64,000 nucleotides of DNA. It comes from a virus (lineage: Duplodnaviria; Heunggongvirae; Uroviricota; Caudoviricetes). The position numbers were made by a program, and so were the translations under genes. Shown here piece after piece: positions 3,115 through 12,406 of the stretch. The DNA lies in IMG/VR virus record IMGVR_UViG_3300025861_000004, one strand, 5' to 3'. Below the pieces are notes generated by a model. It was given only the letters and a program-made list of their open reading frames with translations. It searched no databases and was not told the DNA's origin. Positions within the stretch are counted from its first letter, which is position 1, and the number at the start of each line of letters is the position of its first letter.

Positions 3115-4197
3115 GTGGAGCTCTACCTCTGCCTAACCGTTCCCGCCAAGAGTGGGACGATCTACGTGGGCGACCTGCGGGGCGACGCAGCCCGCCGCAA
3201 CGGGTCGATCGACCCGCCCGCCCAGTGCCGCTACCTGCGGTACCCCGACGTCGGGTCGGTCGCCTTCTCTGTCGAGACGGGATCGACCTACCGCCCCGCG
3301 CACGGAGTCGCGGCCTACCTGGCCGCGCGCGTGCAGCCCGGGGGGAAGGCGGACAACGTCGCGACCCTGACGGTCACCGGCGTCAAGGCCGGCGACACCG
3401 TGAGCTTTGGTGCCCTCGTCCTCACCGCGGGAACCAAGGAGGATGCGGCCACCAACACCTTCAAGGACACCGCGACCGCTGGGTCTGATGACGCCTCTGC
3501 GGCATCGCTGGCCGCGGTGCTCAACGACGCAACGGTCCTGCCAATCCTGCTCATCGCGCTGGGTGTGACGCGCGCCATGGTGGCAGCCAACAAGAACGTC
3601 GTCACCATCACGACCGACCCTCCAGTCAAGGTCACCCCCATCACGGCGAGCGATCCCGCTCACGTCGTGGTGGGTGCGCTGGCTCCGCCCGCCGTCATCC
3701 CTGCGGCCGACGCCTACGACCAGGCGGCGCTAGCGATCGAGGCGTACCTTCAGGCCGCCCACGCGATGACGGTCGCGGACGTGAACGCGGCGATCGCCAC
3801 CGCGCTCCCCGGGGCGGACTTCGCCACGCAGGGGGTGCTCGCCGAGCTGCTCTCGATCCTGGCGGGCCGCGCGTTTCGGCTCGACGAGGGGACGAGGCTG
3901 TTCGACACGACCACCAAGGCGTGGCTCGGGGGCCCCAGCGTCGGGACGTTCACCCGGCCGCTCCAGAGCTCGACCTACTGGATCTTCCCCGCCCACCCGG
4001 GGCCGACGACGAAGCTCACCACTCCCCCCTCGGAGGAGGGCCCAGTACGTCGGACCTTCCCCGGCAGCTTCTCGGACTCCTCGATCCTCAAGGGGCACCT
4101 GTCTCGCCTCACGGGGGGGATCGTGCTGCCTGGCCACCGGAAAGACCAGGGTCGGGTCGCCGTCGTGTATGACCAGGACGGGAACGTGGTGGCCTAG
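3115..4197 (+). CDS. Putative virion protein, paralog 1 of 3
   Basis: GGAGG RBS; shares ILAG-x2-Y/F-x-L, GHLSxL and terminal VVYDxxG motifs with the next two genes. Confidence 0.8.
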   Translation: MELYLCLTVPAKSGTIYVGDLRGDAARRNGSIDPPAQCRYLRYPDVGSVAFSVETGSTYRPAHGVAAYLAARVQPGGKADNVATLTVTGVKAGDTVSFGALVLTAGTKEDAATNTFKDTATAGSDDASAASLAAVLNDATVLPILLIALGVTRAMVAANKNVVTITTDPPVKVTPITASDPAHVVVGALAPPAVIPAADAYDQAALAIEAYLQAAHAMTVADVNAAIATALPGADFATQGVLAELLSILAGRAFRLDEGTRLFDTTTKAWLGGPSVGTFTRPLQSSTYWIFPAHPGPTTKLTTPPSEEGPVRRTFPGSFSDSSILKGHLSRLTGGIVLPGHRKDQGRVAVVYDQDGNVVA

Positions 4198-4222
4198 CCA
4201 CCGCTACAGGAAGGACACATTC

Positions 4223-5113
4223 ATGACCGCGCTCGCGTATCTCGTGACGACTCGCAGGGACCTGGGACCGATCTTCCCGTACCTGTTCGACCTTCGGCCG
4301 GATGGGCTGTACCGGAGCCCGTCCATCACCCCGCCAGGGCAGACCCGGCACCTGCCCGAGCCGCCCGTGGCGGCCGGGACCCCGCCGCTCACCTTCGCGA
4401 TGGACGGGTCGGCGACCGCCCCCGTCGACCTGCGGGGGCTGTCGGCGTGGGCGATCGACAACATCCAGAACCAGGACGGCGGCAAGTCGCTCGCCCTGAC
4501 GGACGTGCAGGCGGCGTACTTCGAGACCGCCATCCTCCAGCGGGTGGAGGCGGCGCTGCCCCTGGCCGCGGCGGACATCGACGCGGCCCTCAACAAGATT
4601 CCAGGCGTCACCGGGTCGTCGGTGTTCCCCAGCGCGACCTCCAAGTCGACCGGGTCGATCGACGGGCTGCTCCGGGTGGTCTCGGACCACACCTACCTCG
4701 TGCCGGCCGGCGCGAAGGTGGTCGAGATGAACGGGGCGTTCCCGGTCGACACGGTGACGATGAAGCACGCGCCGCTCGGTTACTTCCTCAACGGGCGGCC
4801 TGCGCCGGTCGCGGCCCCGCGCTACGGGCTGCCGCCCAAGCCGGCGCGCCCGCCGCTCACGGTCCAGCCCCCTCCGGCGGAGCAGGTGCCGCTCATCGAC
4901 TGCGCCGAGCTGCGGCAGTCGATCCGCAAGGGGTGGCTGTCTCACCTGGTGGACCCGCGCTTTCGCTGGCGTCGGGGGACCTTCACCTACGGACCTGCGG
5001 GCACTGCGACCACCGTTGGTGGGAAGTCGATCCCGGGGCCCGAGGCGGGGCAGGCGGCCTTCCGCGCGCGCGCCGCCGTCGTGTACGACGCCAACGGGAT
5101 GGTGATCGCGTAG
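4223..5113 (+). CDS. Putative virion protein, paralog 2 of 3
   Basis: AGGAAGG RBS before ATG 4223; motifs GWLSHL and VVYDANG. Confidence 0.8.
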   Translation: MTALAYLVTTRRDLGPIFPYLFDLRPDGLYRSPSITPPGQTRHLPEPPVAAGTPPLTFAMDGSATAPVDLRGLSAWAIDNIQNQDGGKSLALTDVQAAYFETAILQRVEAALPLAAADIDAALNKIPGVTGSSVFPSATSKSTGSIDGLLRVVSDHTYLVPAGAKVVEMNGAFPVDTVTMKHAPLGYFLNGRPAPVAAPRYGLPPKPARPPLTVQPPPAEQVPLIDCAELRQSIRKGWLSHLVDPRFRWRRGTFTYGPAGTATTVGGKSIPGPEAGQAAFRARAAVVYDANGMVIA

Positions 5114-5144
5114 CTGCGACCCTTCCGAAACCACAGAGGCCAAC

Positions 5145-6074
5145 ATGACTCCGATCGCCTATTCGATCCCGATCCGCTCCGACCTTGGGGGGCTTTCCCT
5201 CCAGGTGCTCGACCTGGTCCCGAACACCGCACTGCGGTCTACGCTCGACCCGGAGGGGCAGACCTTCTACGTGGGGGTCGGGGCAGACCAGCCAGGCCCG
5301 ACCCAGACGGCTCACGGCCTGTATGTGGGGGGGTCGCGTACGACCTCTCCACTCCCTGCCATCGCCGGCTTCGACTACAACGGGGACACCACGGTGGACG
5401 CCTACGGCCCGCAGGACGTGTCGTACGGGCTCACCGCGTACCTGCTCGACTGTGCGACGGCTGACCCGGGCGGCATGTCGCGCGTGCTCACCACGACCGA
5501 GGCGACCAACCTCGCGCTGGCGATCTTCAAGTTGGCCTACAGGCGGCAATCCCTGCGGGTGGGGGACATCGAGTCCGTCGCCTTCGCGACGACCGGTGTC
5601 GTGGTGGAGTTCAAGGCGTCCACTCCGACTTCTGCGGCGTTTGGGCGCGTGGAGGACGTGATCCGGCTGCTAGCCGGGGAGACCTACGGGCTTCCGGCCG
5701 GCGTGCCGCTCCTGGGAGCAGGGGGCAAGCGGCTCACGCCCGCGCAGCGTAGGGCGGTTGCGGATGCGCTGCCTGCTGTGATCGCCCCGATGGTTTCGGG
5801 CCGGTTCCTGGACCCCCCGGAGGGTGGGTTCCGCAAGGTGCGCGAGCTCATGGTCACCGAGGCGCTGCTCGCCTCCCTCGCGGAGGGTCACCTGTCGCAG
5901 CTCAAGCCTGGAACTGAGTTCTTCGCCAAGAACCCGCGGTTCGCCTACACGGCGAGCTCCGTGCTCCCCTACGTTCCGCGGGCGGTTCAGCTTGACGGGT
6001 CGCCCGTCCCTGAGACGGGTTACACCAGCGGGGCGCTCGTCGTCTACACGGCGGACGGCGTCCCCCTGATGTAG
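5145..6074 (+). CDS. Putative virion protein, paralog 3 of 3
   Basis: GAGG RBS; motifs GHLSQL and VVYTADG. Confidence 0.8.
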   Translation: MTPIAYSIPIRSDLGGLSLQVLDLVPNTALRSTLDPEGQTFYVGVGADQPGPTQTAHGLYVGGSRTTSPLPAIAGFDYNGDTTVDAYGPQDVSYGLTAYLLDCATADPGGMSRVLTTTEATNLALAIFKLAYRRQSLRVGDIESVAFATTGVVVEFKASTPTSAAFGRVEDVIRLLAGETYGLPAGVPLLGAGGKRLTPAQRRAVADALPAVIAPMVSGRFLDPPEGGFRKVRELMVTEALLASLAEGHLSQLKPGTEFFAKNPRFAYTASSVLPYVPRAVQLDGSPVPETGYTSGALVVYTADGVPLM

Positions 6075-6566
6075 ATGGCGACCACCTTCCAGCCAGGTCA
6101 GCTGCTGGGGCGACCAGACCTCTCGATCTTCCTGGCGGACCCTAAGGGCCAGCCCTACGACCCCTACAGCGTCACCTTCGCCCTCTACTACGTGGACCCG
6201 GGACCTCCGGAGACGGAGGTGCTCGTGGGGAGTCCGACGCGAGAACCTGCGCACCCGGCGCGTGGAGAGTACTACGCTGCCATCTTGATCCCGACAGGGG
6301 CGCAGCCAGGCACGTATCGGATCCGGTGGACCCTCAAGCAGACGGCTGCCAGCCCTGAGCAGCATGTCGTGCAGGAGTTCGCCGTCGTCACGACGCCGAT
6401 CATCCTGGTCTCGATGTCCCCCCTTGAGGCCCAGGCGGTCATGGAGCTTCGCATGCTGCTGCGTGACCACTGCGTGGCCGGTGAGGAGGTCGTCGAGGTC
6501 GATGCGGATGGCGTTCGCGTCCTGGTGCGCCTGGACGACCTCTACGATGTGGTGACCTCTCCCTGA
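6075..6566 (+). CDS. Putative structural-protein N-extein fused to a short (31-aa) split-intein N-fragment
   Basis: Beta-rich domain, then LLRDH|CVAGEEVVEVDADGVRVLVRLDDLYDVVTSP-stop; the tail matches intein block A (Cys1, G, V..V, I/L-xDLY). Confidence 0.7.
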   Translation: MATTFQPGQLLGRPDLSIFLADPKGQPYDPYSVTFALYYVDPGPPETEVLVGSPTREPAHPARGEYYAAILIPTGAQPGTYRIRWTLKQTAASPEQHVVQEFAVVTTPIILVSMSPLEAQAVMELRMLLRDHCVAGEEVVEVDADGVRVLVRLDDLYDVVTSP

Positions 6567-6693
6567 TCCGCATCGGGTTCCTACCGGACCCGACCCCGTA
6601 CAATGTGATCCGCTCACGGTGACCTCGCGCAAGATGGGTTCTGACGCAACGTGCTGCCGCGTCTATCCTCAACCCATTCGCTTGGAGGCTCTC

Positions 6694-6771
6694 ATGCGGT
6701 CTTACCTCTACTGCCTGTGCCGTCGCTGCGGTTACCGGTACGAGTTTCGTCTGCCCGTCATCCCCCAGTAG
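6694..6771 (+). CDS. 25-aa Cys-containing peptide MRSYLYCLCRRCGYRYEFRLPVIPQ
   Basis: GGAGG RBS just upstream of ATG 6694; below the ORF-track length cutoff. Confidence 0.45.
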   Translation: MRSYLYCLCRRCGYRYEFRLPVIPQ

Positions 6772-6794
6772 TCTGATGAGGGTAGAGTCGTACC

Positions 6795-7055
6795 ATGACT
6801 CCTCCCACAACGGACCCCTCCCCGCAGGACCAAGCTCGAGGTCTGTACCCCAAGTACCAGATCTGTAAGGCGGACGGGTCTCCCGTAGACCCGTCCGCCG
6901 ACTACTTCGTGCTGCGCCTGGACGGACAGGACCCGCACGCCCTCGCGTGCCGGGCAGCGGTCCTCACGTACGCGAACCACATCGAGCCTCACCTTCCCTT
7001 GGTCGCGCGCGACCTTCGCGAGAAGGTTCGTTCGCGGGATTCGTCCCGCGGCTAG
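6795..7055 (+). CDS. Small phage hypothetical protein (86 aa)
   Basis: GLYPKY...DG...YFVLRLD...A...Y pattern recalled from small phage proteins. Confidence 0.7.
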   Translation: MTPPTTDPSPQDQARGLYPKYQICKADGSPVDPSADYFVLRLDGQDPHALACRAAVLTYANHIEPHLPLVARDLREKVRSRDSSRG

Positions 7056-7108
7056 ACCTCTCCGGCCACTTAATCCCGCTATATCGCCCGCCTGGCAGGA
7101 GGTCTGCT

Positions 7109-10100
7109 GTGGCCATTGTTAATACTTACCGCCCGCCTGGCGTATACGTCACGACCGATATCGAGATCCCCGACGAGGGGTTTCCGGAGTCGGTGCGGAT
7201 CCCCGCGTTCATCGGTGAGGGCACGGAGCTGCTGACGCAGACCGACCTGGAGATCGTTCGCGGCTCCTCTTCCGTGGCGGACCAGAACGTCGTGCTCGAG
7301 GACGAGCGAGGCCGCGCGGTCCGCAAGGTGATGAGCGGCGGCATCATCTCCCTCACGGACTTCGACGGGGTCATCACCAAGTTCCGCGTCCACCACTACC
7401 CGATCGTCGACGGAGCGGGTATCGGACGCCCTACTACGTCGCAGTCAGACGTTCAGGTGTTCGTCGATGGTCGGCCTGCGGTTGTGCAGTCTGTCGACGG
7501 TGTGCAGGGGATCATCGAGCTGGTGGTGGCCCCTGACCCCACCTCCACGGTGGCCTGCACCTACTACTTCAAGCGCACCGACACGCAGTTCACGGACGAC
7601 CTGTCGTTCCAGGTGACCCCCGAGGCGGCGGTCATCTACGGGCTTCGCGGGATCGCGGACACGGACGCGGACAACAACCAGGGCGAGACGCTCCAGTTCA
7701 TGGACGAGCAGGTCGGTCCAAGTGGTCAGGTCGTGGTGCCTGGCAACAACCGCCTGTTGCTCAACGTCGACCGTGCAGCGGTGGACATTCGCATCCCGCC
7801 CGGCCGCTACACCATGCGGCAGGCGGCCAACTCCATCTCGGCGGCGCGCGCTCAGTCGCTGCGCGCAGGTACCCTCCTCAACAACCTGGGCTTGTCCACG
7901 CTGTCCCTCACCGCAGACCACGAGCTTGAGGTGACGGGGGGGTCGGCGTGCAGCCTCCTTGGGCTTGAGCCGGGGCAGCTGTACCGGCGCCGGCGTACCT
8001 TCGTGACCAACGAGGGGCCGATCGTCGATGGCAGCAACGGTGGTGTTACGACGACCGACCCCACCAAGGTGGTCGTTCGTGTCGACGGAGAAACGATTCC
8101 TGCCGAGTCGGTCGATGGGCGGTCTCGACAGGTGACCCTGTCGATCGCGCCGCGCGCGGGGGCCAAGGTGGTCATCACCTACTGGTCGAACACCTGGCAG
8201 GACACCTACGACTACCTCGGTCATCGGGGGGTCACGCGGATCGTTCGGGTGGGGGACACTCCAGGGCGATCCGCCTACACCGACGGCGCGGACTACGTGC
8301 TCGACTCCGACCGAATCCTGTGGGGGGCCTCATGGTCGGTGCGGCCGGCGAAGCTCCCGGAAGCAGGGTATGTGGCGTTCGGTCCGGACCAGGTGGACGC
8401 CTTCATGCTGGACGACCGGGACTTCCTGGCTCCCTGCAAGCCGGTCGTGCAGAGCGTGGGGGGGCAGGTGGTGCAGAGCACTACGTCGTTCATCCACCCC
8501 CGCCTGCCTACGCTCGGCAACGGGCGCGACACGCCGCTTGGTCAGTCGCTCTTCAACCTGACGGCCAACACCCGCACGGGGACTCCATCAGACCGACCGG
8601 ACCTCATCTGGGCCTACTGGGGCTACGACCCGCAGGACGCGCTGCTGCGCGGACGTCAGCGCGTCGTGCAGGCCAACGGGGCGATGTTCACCCTGGGGTC
8701 TCCGGTCCCCGTGGGGGCCAAGGTCTACGCGACCGCCTACTACAACGCGCTCTCTGACGCGGTGTACCGCCTGCGGTGCGAGCGTGCAGGGGCCTCGACG
8801 TTCGGGACCTATCGAGTCCTCGACGTGGGCGACCGGTCGCTCTTCTGCGCGATCTACGACCCTGGGTCCAAGGGGCCGGCGATCTTCGACGTGTCGCTCG
8901 AGTGGCCGGGCGGTTCCGACCTGTCCTCCGACGCGCGTTTGGAGGGTGTATCCGATCCCCTCTTCAAGGGTCCCGTCGAGGAGACCATTACGGTCCACAT
9001 GGCAACGGAGCAGCCCACCTCGGCACGCTACGCGGTGTCAGGCTCCGGTCCCTACGCGCTCGTCCGCAGCTACTCGGACCGGGCGCGCATCCGCGTGAAC
9101 AACGCAGACCTCATGACGGGCCTGGCGGGCATCGACCTTTCGGACCCCGCCAACCTTGCGGGCTTCACCGCGGGCTTCCCTCCCACGCTCGTGGGGGACG
9201 TGGTCAACTACACGGGCGGCAAGGGGTCGGTCGTCGGTCAGTCCTACACGATCGATCGCCCCGAGGAGCTCGTCCTTGAGATGGAGGGTGTGCAGGTCAC
9301 CGCGGTGGTGCCTGCACGCCAGGGGGCGACGGTGGGTCTCGTTCGCGACGCCATCAACCTCGCCGTGTGCGGTTGGCAGGGTCAGGCTGACGGAGGCAGC
9401 GGGAACACCGTCGTTGTTCCGCTGCTGACCAGCGGCGACATGACCGACCGGTTCAAGGGCTGGGAGGTCGTGGTCGGAGACACGGCTGCGGCGGCGACGC
9501 CGGGTCAGACGCGCAAGGTCGCATCCTATGACCCTGCGACGCGCACCATCACGGTCAGCGCCCCCTGGGCCGGCGGGGCCCTCGTCAAGGGTGACCCGAT
9601 CCGGCTGCGCGACCCGAGCGCGATCCCGGAGATGCGAGGCGAGACGATCTTTGACGCGTCCCTAACCATCTCTCCTGGGCAGTTCTCGCAGGTCGCGATG
9701 GCCTACGTGGGAAGCGTTACGGGAGCTACCGGCGTCGTCACGCTCGACATCCCGGCGGGCACCTACCCCACGCCGGGCGACCTGGCCTCGACGCTGGAGA
9801 TTGGGCTCAACGCGGCGATCGCAGCGATCGCCACGAAGTTCGCGGGCCTGCGGGTCAGCTTCCGTGCGGACGGGGATGGCCGCCTCGTGGTGGGCCTGCG
9901 GTCTGCCGCGCTCGACTCTGCGGGAGCCCTCTCGTTCGTCGCGGCCCCCAAGGGACCGGCGGCGGACTTCTCCGTCCTGGCGGGTTTCGACACCGGCTCC
10001 GGGTTTGGTGGAGGTCAGGCGGTCCTCGTTGACGCTCCCGTCGCACATGCGTTCGGAGTAGCGCGGTCGGACGGCTCGCGGACTGCGGACCGACTCGTCA

Positions 10101-12406
10101 TCCGGGGACGCTTGTTCCCGGGTCGGTCGGGGTCGGTGGACCCCACGGGTCAGGCGCAGCGCTCGACCCTACGGGTGCTCACGGGCTCAGCGGCCGTTCG
10201 AGTGGGAATGCTGGTGGGCGACTTCGGGGAAGGCGGGCCGCACGCGCTGGTTCGTCCCGCCTCGATCCTCATGCGGGCGAACTTTGGGGTCGGGCAGGAC
10301 GGCACCACGGGAGAGCCCCTCGTCGTGTTCTACGATGGTACGGGTCAGCGCGCAGCCAACAACGAGCTGCGCTTCACCGTGGATGGGCAGTCGGTGGTGG
10401 TGCGGTTCGCCTCCAGTTCGGGCGGGACGCCTACTCCGGTGGGGCCCGCAGCGAACCCGAACAGCCTCTTCGCGCAGGTGGTGGCCGCAATGGCTGCCGT
10501 TCAGGGCACACCGTTTGGCGGCGCGGGAACCATCCTCTCCTCGGGCACGGTACGCCGTGAGGGATCCGGGATCCGGGTGACGAGCATCCGCTCGGACGAG
10601 CGATCGATCATCTCGGTTGGGGACAGCACGGCGGCCCCGACGATCGGGCTCTCTCCTGGGCAGGTGGCCGAGCGTACGCTCGTGTCGGTACGACGTCTCG
10701 TGTCAGGGCTCAACGCCTACCGCGCGACGTCCGCGACGACCTACCTGCTCCGGTTCGACGCCGCTGGTGCGGTCGGCACGTTCGGCAACGTCGCGGTCGC
10801 CTCCGTGGAGCACGACGAGGCGGGGTCGGAGTTCCTGCACCTCTCGGCGATCCCGCTCTCCTCGGCGGGTTACGGGACTTCCTCGCAGGTCGCGGTTCGC
10901 GACTCGGTCATCGCGGGGCGCGTGTCCCGCAGCTGGCTCGCCTACGGGACCGGCATCGGATCGACGGACGGCCAGGGGGACATCGGGGAGCCGAGGGTCG
11001 ACGGGTTCTACGTCACCTCCGACAACCCGAACGGGTCTGGATCGGCTAACGACTCGGTCCTCAACGCAGGGGTCGGGCAGGACGGCCTGGTGGGCCAGAC
11101 GTACCGCGACCGCGTGACGGGCCTTACCTTCACGCTCCTCCCCCGCGGGTGGTCGGAGAACCCAGACGGTCCGTGGCAGAGCTATCCCTCAGGGGGTGGT
11201 GCGAGCTTCAACATCCGGTCCACGCGGGTCATCACCGCTGAGGCCAACCGGGTGCGGCGCGTCATCCCGGGCCTAGAGCTCAAGGTCTCCGACACCCTGA
11301 GGGTCAAGGAGGCCGACGAGGCGGTGCTGCGCACGCTCGACCGTCGTGGGCTGGAACCCGCTGTGGGGGCGCTCTACTACGCGACGTACCAGTACCTCAA
11401 GCCGAGCTTCGCCCCTGGCCTGTTCACGCGTCAGGACGCCGTGGAGGCAGCCTACGGACCGTCTATCCCCGATAACCCGGTCTCGCTCGCCGCGTTCCTG
11501 GCGTTCCTCAACGGCGCGGCCGTCGTCGCGATCCGTCAGGTCCCGCGTGAGGGAGGGTTCACCAAGGGGTCTCTCGCCGAGTATGTTCGCGCGACCGAGG
11601 ACCTGGAGTCTCCCGTCGGGGAGGTGTCGGTCGACATGATCATGCTGCTCCGCGGCGACTCGCCGGAGCTCATGCAGGTACAGACGAGCTCGAACGCCAA
11701 GATGTCGGCCTTCCGCATCAAGCAGGAGCGGACGAGCATCTTCGGGCTGTCGGCGGGGTCTGACATCGCGACGGTCAAGAACGTCGCGGGGGGGCTATTC
11801 GACGACCGGGCGCGCGTCGTGTATCCCGACGTGGCGTTCATCAACCGTGCGGACCAGAACGGGGTCACCAAGAGGTACTTCGTTGACGGTACGTTGCTCG
11901 CAGCGGCGCTGTCCGGAATCGTTACGTCTCCTCGTCAGGACGTCGCGACGCCCTGGACGGGGCGTCGCATCGCGGGGTTCGCCGGTATGGGGCGCAGGCT
12001 GTCGGAGCCGCAGGCCAACGAGGTCGCGGCGGCCGGCGTGACGGTCATCACTCCCATTCCAGGAACGCTCAAGGTTCGGCACGGGCTGACCACCAACACG
12101 TCGAACGTCCTCACCCAAGAACCGACGGTTCGGCTCATCGCCGACGAGGTGCAGCAGGAGTCGCGGGCGCTGCTCGACCCGTTCATCGGGATCAAGTACC
12201 TGCCCGGTGTTGCGGGACAGGTGGAGGGGCGACTCTCCAACTACCTGAAGTTCAAGAAGAAGTCGCAGATCATCCGCGACTACCGCGACGTCAAGGCGCT
12301 CGCTGGCGGTGACGCGGTGTCCCTCGCGGTGGCGGCCAAGTACGCTCCCGTCCTGCCCCTCTTGTACATCGACCTCAAGTACACCCTGACGACCAACCTC
12401 GACTAG
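7109..12406 (+). CDS. Contractile tail sheath protein, very large (1765 aa)
   Basis: N-terminal YRPPGVY and C-terminal sheath domain (TTNTSNVLTQEPTVRLIADEV...YAPVLPLLYIDLKY); AGGAGG RBS before GTG 7109. Confidence 0.9.
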   Translation: MAIVNTYRPPGVYVTTDIEIPDEGFPESVRIPAFIGEGTELLTQTDLEIVRGSSSVADQNVVLEDERGRAVRKVMSGGIISLTDFDGVITKFRVHHYPIVDGAGIGRPTTSQSDVQVFVDGRPAVVQSVDGVQGIIELVVAPDPTSTVACTYYFKRTDTQFTDDLSFQVTPEAAVIYGLRGIADTDADNNQGETLQFMDEQVGPSGQVVVPGNNRLLLNVDRAAVDIRIPPGRYTMRQAANSISAARAQSLRAGTLLNNLGLSTLSLTADHELEVTGGSACSLLGLEPGQLYRRRRTFVTNEGPIVDGSNGGVTTTDPTKVVVRVDGETIPAESVDGRSRQVTLSIAPRAGAKVVITYWSNTWQDTYDYLGHRGVTRIVRVGDTPGRSAYTDGADYVLDSDRILWGASWSVRPAKLPEAGYVAFGPDQVDAFMLDDRDFLAPCKPVVQSVGGQVVQSTTSFIHPRLPTLGNGRDTPLGQSLFNLTANTRTGTPSDRPDLIWAYWGYDPQDALLRGRQRVVQANGAMFTLGSPVPVGAKVYATAYYNALSDAVYRLRCERAGASTFGTYRVLDVGDRSLFCAIYDPGSKGPAIFDVSLEWPGGSDLSSDARLEGVSDPLFKGPVEETITVHMATEQPTSARYAVSGSGPYALVRSYSDRARIRVNNADLMTGLAGIDLSDPANLAGFTAGFPPTLVGDVVNYTGGKGSVVGQSYTIDRPEELVLEMEGVQVTAVVPARQGATVGLVRDAINLAVCGWQGQADGGSGNTVVVPLLTSGDMTDRFKGWEVVVGDTAAAATPGQTRKVASYDPATRTITVSAPWAGGALVKGDPIRLRDPSAIPEMRGETIFDASLTISPGQFSQVAMAYVGSVTGATGVVTLDIPAGTYPTPGDLASTLEIGLNAAIAAIATKFAGLRVSFRADGDGRLVVGLRSAALDSAGALSFVAAPKGPAADFSVLAGFDTGSGFGGGQAVLVDAPVAHAFGVARSDGSRTADRLVIRGRLFPGRSGSVDPTGQAQRSTLRVLTGSAAVRVGMLVGDFGEGGPHALVRPASILMRANFGVGQDGTTGEPLVVFYDGTGQRAANNELRFTVDGQSVVVRFASSSGGTPTPVGPAANPNSLFAQVVAAMAAVQGTPFGGAGTILSSGTVRREGSGIRVTSIRSDERSIISVGDSTAAPTIGLSPGQVAERTLVSVRRLVSGLNAYRATSATTYLLRFDAAGAVGTFGNVAVASVEHDEAGSEFLHLSAIPLSSAGYGTSSQVAVRDSVIAGRVSRSWLAYGTGIGSTDGQGDIGEPRVDGFYVTSDNPNGSGSANDSVLNAGVGQDGLVGQTYRDRVTGLTFTLLPRGWSENPDGPWQSYPSGGGASFNIRSTRVITAEANRVRRVIPGLELKVSDTLRVKEADEAVLRTLDRRGLEPAVGALYYATYQYLKPSFAPGLFTRQDAVEAAYGPSIPDNPVSLAAFLAFLNGAAVVAIRQVPREGGFTKGSLAEYVRATEDLESPVGEVSVDMIMLLRGDSPELMQVQTSSNAKMSAFRIKQERTSIFGLSAGSDIATVKNVAGGLFDDRARVVYPDVAFINRADQNGVTKRYFVDGTLLAAALSGIVTSPRQDVATPWTGRRIAGFAGMGRRLSEPQANEVAAAGVTVITPIPGTLKVRHGLTTNTSNVLTQEPTVRLIADEVQQESRALLDPFIGIKYLPGVAGQVEGRLSNYLKFKKKSQIIRDYRDVKALAGGDAVSLAVAAKYAPVLPLLYIDLKYTLTTNLD

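Follow-up and report, generated by a model that had tools for sequence, protein, structure and literature searches.

Our analysis makes it very probable that the gene at positions 6075-6566 (plus strand; here the N gene) is one of two into which the coding sequence of a ~314-residue virion protein has been split: it supplies the front half, the back half lies 67 kb away in the genome of the same giant, uncultured phage, and the two products are rejoined by an intein. The window, the whole stretch of 64,000 nucleotides that was analysed (G+C ~67%), corresponds to C1:11063-75062, minus strand, of a 202,778-bp IMG/VR virus record, and the same phage has also been assembled as a 331,503-bp ENA contig. 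We infer from the sequences of both halves and of their relatives that the joining occurs by protein trans-splicing, and the split protein is, with moderate confidence, a head-to-tail connector or adaptor.

The N gene encodes 163 residues and ends ...LRMLLRDH-CVAGEEVVEVDADGVRVLVRLDDLYDVVTSP before a TGA stop. Reading frame, translation and homology identify residues 1-132 (6075-6470) as the N-extein of the connector-like protein. Intein-free homologues of ~298 residues match it with their own residues 1-132, and it has an Ig-like beta-sandwich followed by a helix ending ...LLRDH. The 31 residues from Cys133 to Pro163 (6471-6563) are assigned, on a homologue alignment and a complex model, to the N-terminal fragment (IntN) of an atypically split class-1 intein, comprising Cys1 (residue 133), two beta-strands and the first helix (LDDLYDVV). 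The initial annotation had claimed such a 31-residue fragment at the end of a structural-module gene and its coordinates proved exact, with the Cys codon at 6471 and the stop, at the split site, at 6564-6566. Cys133 stands directly 3' of the last residue common to the intein-free homologues, and across 55 aligned N-fragments Cys133 and L156 are invariant and G136, E137 and G146 at least 90% conserved.

Among 5.8 billion proteins searched, 97 relatives of the N gene were listed; some 75 of them are short N-fragments, the short homologues ending no more than a few residues from the TGA position. The relatives fall into three classes: proteins of ~165 residues that all end LRDQ-C-xGEExVE-xDxDG...L(W/Y)E, like the N gene; proteins of ~257 residues that read LRDQ-NPDKFYHFRPPE...NWVADEF and then carry a second, similar tail of ~30 residues beginning with Ser; and longer proteins that read through both break points. 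In the intein-free homologues (48 of 80 related phage loci) LRDQ runs straight into NPDKFYHF. This comparison bears directly on the reading that the 163-residue protein is complete, with the tail as a normal extension of its C-terminus and only a coincidental likeness to block A. The complete reading frame and the equal length of many homologues would suit it, but homologues lacking the tail extend in frame by a conserved stretch of ~165 residues, which in this phage is supplied by the distant gene immediately after an intein C-end, and the tail itself lines up with the beginning of contiguous inteins. The continuation in homologues and the collinearity refute the reading, to which we give practically no credence; at the junction the extein goes on and the tail replaces nothing, so the doubt voiced in the initial annotation, that this might be a plain C-terminus, is removed.

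The back half was located with intact homologues. Residues 2-116 of the intact homologue P0092 match the N gene and residues 116-280 match an ORF at C1:1023-1514 (plus strand), and a second intact homologue, P0081, searched against the phage record gave the same two-place match. The corresponding gene (P0099, 313 residues, identified by its matches to intact homologues) lies at G000:C1:633-1574 on the plus strand of C1, which in extrapolated window coordinates is 73489-74430 on the minus strand, 9.5 kb past the window end, 66.9 kb from the N gene and on the opposite strand. It starts with TTG, 9 nt after GAGGAGG, and in alignment this start coincides with the Met-Leu at which homologous IntC genes begin; a search with the gene returned 961 matches, the top ones mostly IntC-type genes. 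Its first 131 residues are the C-terminal intein fragment (IntC), which carries LTADH (block B), YVYNLTVPPHCNF (block F) and a terminal ...GGLAN, and the remaining 182 are the C-extein, which after ...GGLAN reads SPDKFYHFRPPE... and so enters the part missing from the N gene. The predicted spliced product of 314 residues would read ...LLRDH-SPDKFYHF..., where intein-free alleles read ...LLRDQ-NPDKFYHF... at the same place. Two further expectations from the initial annotation are thereby borne out: a C-fragment with blocks B, F and G and the matching C-extein is encoded elsewhere in the genome, and intein-free homologues identify that C-extein with a continuation that is exact at the junction. 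No ORF with an intein C-end lies within the window, also as supposed, since tblastn with the IntC and the endonuclease described below gave no match there. The 331.5-kb contig holds both genes, the IntC-C-extein gene at 4457-5398 (plus strand) and the N gene at ~72.3-72.8 kb (minus strand), and with both genes on that one contig, as on the 202.8-kb record, their separation is not an assembly artefact.

The residues expected of a class-1 intein are present in the two fragments together, with one exception. Cys133 is the first intein residue and provides the block A nucleophile; the block B TxxH is LTADH, which aligns to LTHDH of the Mja KlbA intein, with T61 and H64 invariant in 55 IntC sequences; a block-F His is present (PHCNF); and the terminal Asn of ...GGLAN/SPDKFYHF is found in all 55 sequences as N131. 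The +1 residue across the 55 is Ser (43, as here) or Cys (12). The exception is the penultimate His of block G, which is Ala in this copy (GLAN/S), and across the family the position is Ser in 33, His in 9, Lys in 5, Gly in 5, Ala in 2 and Arg in 1. A penultimate His is common but not universal among active inteins. As an insertion the element is in frame, missing from the 48 intein-free loci, and its contiguous and split alleles share one site.

Structural and profile comparisons point the same way. Against the PDB the single IntC sequence matched only inteins, and weakly (KlbA 3e-4, RadA 1.5e-3), and the single IntC-C-extein sequence scored 21 bits with Pfam Intein_splicing, under the 35.8 cut-off; a genome-wide scan with that family gave sub-threshold matches only, all at the partner locus outside the window. 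A profile of 55 IntC-C-extein homologues matched inteins and intein-like (BIL) domains only, best of all Mja KlbA (3.3e-12) and Pho RadA (6e-8), followed by Spl DnaX, CDC21, TFIIB, PolII, Npu DnaE and NrdJ-1, and the alignments begin at about residue 27-31 of the mini-inteins. Contiguous alleles are known from P0184 (a 154-residue intein), P0170 (177 residues) and a 462-residue ORF of locus L012. The IntN tail aligns with residues 1 to ~33 of the P0184 and P0170 inteins, and IntN tails and IntC fragments tile these contiguous inteins without gap or loss, so that fragments from two separate genes add up to one complete intein. A model of a contiguous homologue (pLDDT 91.4) has inteins or BIL domains as all of its best 50 Foldseek PDB matches (14-24% identity; TM 0.44-0.75, at least 0.56 in all but one of the 50), and the HINT fold is thus assigned through the homologue model and the profile rather than a structure of this copy. 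In the model the break maps to the loop after the first helix, and a 31-residue IntN with a 131-residue IntC bearing blocks B, F and G falls within the 15-37 residues described for short natural IntN fragments.

The two intein halves should bind each other, as judged by structure prediction. A complex of IntC (residues 1-142) with N gene residues 122-163 was modelled with an ipSAE of 0.86, against 0.02 for the best control, a mark that 58 of 80 solved complexes attained, as did 2 of 110 mismatched pairs; split-intein complexes having already been solved, a pass here expresses likeness and is not proof of binding by this copy. The runs had at least 88% of contacts in common, with a partner pLDDT of at least 74, and the interface comprises N gene residues 131-162 and IntC residues 58-65, including the TxxH block. 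In the mechanism that we propose, the short IntN would fold onto the nearly complete IntC after translation and so finish the HINT fold. Cys1 of IntN would then form a thioester, Ser+1 of the C-extein would attack it, and cyclisation of Asn131 would leave the exteins joined as ...LLRDH-SPDKFYHF....

It could instead be that the intein halves only hold the two polypeptides together, with no covalent splicing, and that the heterodimer works as the protein. The missing penultimate His (Ala here, mostly Ser in the family) would fit this, the complex model supports association and not chemistry, and functional split phage enzymes without an intein are cited in PMC2677866; NrdA of phage Aeh1, split by an endonuclease gene and assembled with no intein, is a precedent. 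Against it, Cys1, the block-B Thr and His, the terminal Asn and the +1 Ser/Cys are invariant in 55 diverged sequences, as is expected only with selection on splicing chemistry, and the contiguous alleles in P0184, P0170 and L012 must splice to give a working protein. On balance we regard a purely non-covalent assembly as improbable and favour trans-splicing.

Related loci place this arrangement within a family. The connector-like protein is conserved across the phage group, and 80 IMG/VR loci divided as follows: 48 had no intein at either of two sites, 17 were split at the site described here (site a), 2 had a contiguous intein there, 8 were split at a second site (site b, ADEF/S...), 1 had a contiguous intein at site b and 4 were cut by contig ends. 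Both sites sit in the most conserved extein motifs, NPDKFYHFRPPE and DEFDYSIGG, and the site-b intein shares 28-30% identity with the IntC of site a. [quoted passage not shown] This gap gene encodes a TnsA-like endonuclease N-terminal domain (PF08722, Tn7_TnsA-like_N), which exceeded the Pfam cut-off in 6 of the 8 copies scanned (5 of 7 from relatives and this phage's own). Site-b gaps are filled by Vsr/DUF559-type genes.

The phage has its own copy of the TnsA-like PD-(D/E)xK endonuclease gene, of 280 residues, directly upstream of the IntC gene and overlapping its start by 35 nt (G000:C1:2-667, in L003; full length at L009:3649-4491). The protein carries PD...EVK and scores 32.6-33.4 bits with PF08722 (cut-off 26.5); a PDB sequence search with it gave no meaningful match. 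From its sequence and position it is a free-standing putative homing-type endonuclease associated with the split intein. We suggest that a contiguous mini-intein was broken after its first helix by the gene of such a free-standing TnsA-like homing endonuclease, a broken-intein layout that relatives with the endonuclease would still preserve, and that the block of endonuclease and IntC-C-extein genes was later relocated to another genome region in this phage's lineage. The IntC fragment of P0173 is 85% identical to the corresponding part of the contiguous intein of P0184 (alignment A6), which indicates that breaking or re-fusion of the intein was evolutionarily recent in at least one lineage. 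At four loci (L020:3001-5938, L022:3001-5117, L024:3001-6100 and L031:3001-6093) the connector-like protein is encoded in three pieces, the middle one beginning with the IntC of site a and ending with the IntN of site b, so that two related split inteins serve the two sites; endonuclease genes occupy some of the gaps, and L022 has none. These loci amount to putative natural tandem trans-splicing.

Only in the present phage and close relatives of it were the halves found dispersed. The place that the endonuclease and IntC-C-extein genes occupy in more distant relatives is taken here by a non-coding spacer (6567-6794), followed by an 86-residue gene and a giant sheath gene. Its close relatives L108 (87% identity) and L109 (64%) have the identical layout of N gene, small ORF and ~1766-residue sheath gene, with intact IntN tails and with no IntC or endonuclease within 6 kb of the N gene. 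At the old site tblastn detected neither IntC nor endonuclease remnants, in the window or beside the close relatives' N gene. The IntC-C-extein gene of a relative (L110) is intact, 69% identical, adjoins a DnaB-like gene and stands without an endonuclease gene. The dispersed layout is thus a derived but stable state of a fractured gene whose halves are adjacent in relatives.

The same comparisons weigh on the idea of a decaying remnant, in which the gene is broken, one or both halves are non-functional and the tail is a relic. It could draw on the separation of the halves, on an endonuclease that is no longer flanked by them and on the fast evolution of the intein parts: the IntC is 44% identical to that of L110 (dN/dS ~0.49) and the IntN tail 29% identical to that of L109 (dN/dS ~0.8, over 31 codons with saturated dS), although against L108 the tail gives a dN/dS of 0.12. 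Much faster as this is than in the exteins, the intein parts are still open and retain their catalytic residues. What speaks against decay is that both ORFs are intact, that both exteins are under strong purifying selection (dN/dS 0.07-0.14 against close relatives), that the dispersed layout is kept in relatives down to 64% identity, and that no second, intact copy of the gene was found in the virus record for a protein conserved across the phage group. We therefore consider decay very improbable, and a functional pair of halves remains our reading. The two genes occupy different genome neighbourhoods, and no common promoter signal was found: the candidate promoter TCAGCTC-N17-CGAC was not found ahead of either half, nor a sigma-70-like promoter or terminator downstream of the N gene. 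Their co-expression is for these reasons an assumption.

The initial annotation had taken the host for a virion-module protein, and this holds with a refinement: it is more likely a head-tail connector than a generic virion protein. The nearest cultured-phage homologue is gp319 of Tunturiibacter phage Tunturi_5 (28% identity over 92%, E 1e-25), annotated by its depositors as a head-tail connector protein and sharing the same downstream synteny. An AF2 model of an intact homologue (pLDDT 65, pTM 0.38) has a beta-sandwich at residues 1-109 that resembles macroglobulin-type domains (VIA Z 9.3), the VIA search having matched mainly this N-terminal Ig-like domain. The helical domain is weakly like the portal-adaptor chains 8i4m_G, 7qoj_D and 6tba, at Z ~7, within the noise range of the tool. 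ESM Atlas pointed to connector and neck families, with leads under 0.9. The intact extein model had no Foldseek match in the PDB at E <= 0.001, Pfam and PHROGs gave nothing beyond chance-level matches for the N gene, and PHROGs gave no family for the intact homologue P0183 or the partner P0099.

The kind of element described here is already known, as atypically split inteins (PMC13014065) and as fractured genes (PMC2677866). Among the former, AceL-TerL, GOS-TerL and the consensus Cat-TerL (Thiel 2014; Bachmann & Mootz 2015; both via PMC11766414 and PMC13014065) have an IntN of 25, 37 and 30 residues respectively and an IntC of 104-115 residues; the length of about 25 residues that the initial annotation had given for AceL-TerL is thus correct. 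Natural atypically split inteins have an IntN of 15-37 residues overall, and AceL-TerL and GOS-TerL are split at a site termed S2 (PMC13014065). Our intein resembles these two in its short IntN (31 residues) and long IntC with blocks B, F and G (131 residues), in the split after the first alpha-helix (S2), in being phage-borne and in class-1 chemistry from Cys1. It differs in that theirs sit in terminase, with adjacent halves and a +1 Cys, whereas here the host is connector-like, Ser stands at +1, the penultimate His is missing and the halves are 67 kb apart. The host protein not being a terminase, the locus falls outside the TerL split intein family (AceL, GOS, Cat). The PDB profile search with the IntC brought up no TerL intein at E <= 0.01, and in that comparison no close sequence kinship to AceL-TerL and GOS-TerL was detected.

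VidaL (PDB 6vgv) and PolB16 OarG are likewise natural short-IntN split inteins found in metagenomes, and they are split earlier, after beta-strand 2 (S1), with an IntN of 15-16 residues (PMC13014065), whereas the split here follows helix 1 and leaves 31 residues. Against the model of the contiguous homologue VidaL ranked 11 in Foldseek (TM 0.64-0.72, 18% identity). Fractured genes were described by Dassa, London, Stoddard, Schueler-Furman and Pietrokovski in 2009 (PMC2677866) for terminase and for enzymes that synthesise or repair DNA, together with endonucleases of GIY-YIG or Vsr-like type; one terminase locus in that work has the same unusually early break, with an IntC of 122 residues. Our 17 more distant relatives, with neighbouring halves and mostly an endonuclease gene between them, are like these fractured genes. 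In this phage an endonuclease gene is still associated; in contrast to the fractured genes, the host is a structural protein and the halves are non-adjacent, 67 kb apart on opposite strands. The cyanobacterial DnaE of Ssp and Npu also has gene halves far apart on opposite strands, rejoined by protein trans-splicing. Those inteins have the canonical split, IntN taking up ~100-123 residues and IntC ~36; their host is a cellular replication enzyme, and no endonuclease gene accompanies them. Structures of DnaE inteins were among the PDB profile and Foldseek matches described above.

Four aspects are new with respect to the literature searched: the host protein, the TnsA-like endonuclease, the two-site and three-piece family, and the 67-kb dispersal within a phage genome. 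In that search no paper linked split inteins to a neck or connector protein or to a TnsA-like nuclease; PMC2677866 makes no mention of TnsA, and the TnsA-like type is absent among the intein-associated endonucleases both there and in the other intein paper compared. Intein-fractured genes are extended from DNA-metabolism enzymes to a virion assembly protein, a TnsA-like nuclease is added to the intein-associated endonucleases, and dispersal of the halves within a phage genome represents the next evolutionary step after fracture. For annotation, two "hypothetical" genes of this phage are linked into one protein. The short, synthesisable IntN of natural split inteins is prized for protein semisynthesis and labelling, and only a handful (AceL-TerL, GOS-TerL, VidaL, PolB16) have been described and are called rare (PMC13014065, PMC11766414). 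This locus is a member of a populous family with Cys1/Ser+1 chemistry, and its contiguous counterparts and three-piece tandem versions suggest many candidate orthogonal pairs.

A more far-reaching reading, speculative and in our judgement rather unlikely to hold in full, is that in a clade of ~330-kb phages an essential neck protein requires co-expression of genes from two modules, so that trans-splicing would act as a timing gate on head-tail joining and would not be a mere scar of a selfish element. It would hold further that the family, with two related inteins at two sites, contiguous or split, and natural three-piece versions, amounts to a large natural collection of short-IntN split inteins, mutually orthogonal and accompanied by an intein-associated endonuclease type not reported before. 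Were the timing gate true, it would involve an N gene in a late virion operon and a partner beside replication-type genes, behind the TnsA-like endonuclease.

The surroundings of the N gene gave several minor observations. Directly upstream are three tandem paralogues (3115-4197, 4169-5113 and 5145-6074; 360, ~296-314 and 309 residues) with a C-terminal ...VVYDxxGxxxA motif in common and no Pfam or PHROG family. The 86-residue gene between the N gene and the sheath gene (6795-7055) matches phrog_9572 (E 6e-12), whose name, "sulfatase-modifying factor enzyme", is an odd label for a small virion-module gene. The giant protein encoded at 6947-12406 has 1765-1819 residues, the start codon being uncertain (gene callers start ~54 codons later), and its last ~180 residues match the tail-sheath family phrog_279; the syntenic 1362-residue gene of Tunturi_5 is annotated as a MutT/NUDIX hydrolase. 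Elsewhere, gp165 of Bacillus phage G (L112:4953-5492, 180 residues) matches the intact connector-like protein over residues 116-247 only (E 1e-8); its gene is surrounded by genes for PhoH, an exonuclease and a ligase, and it may represent one more stand-alone fragment of the connector-like family.
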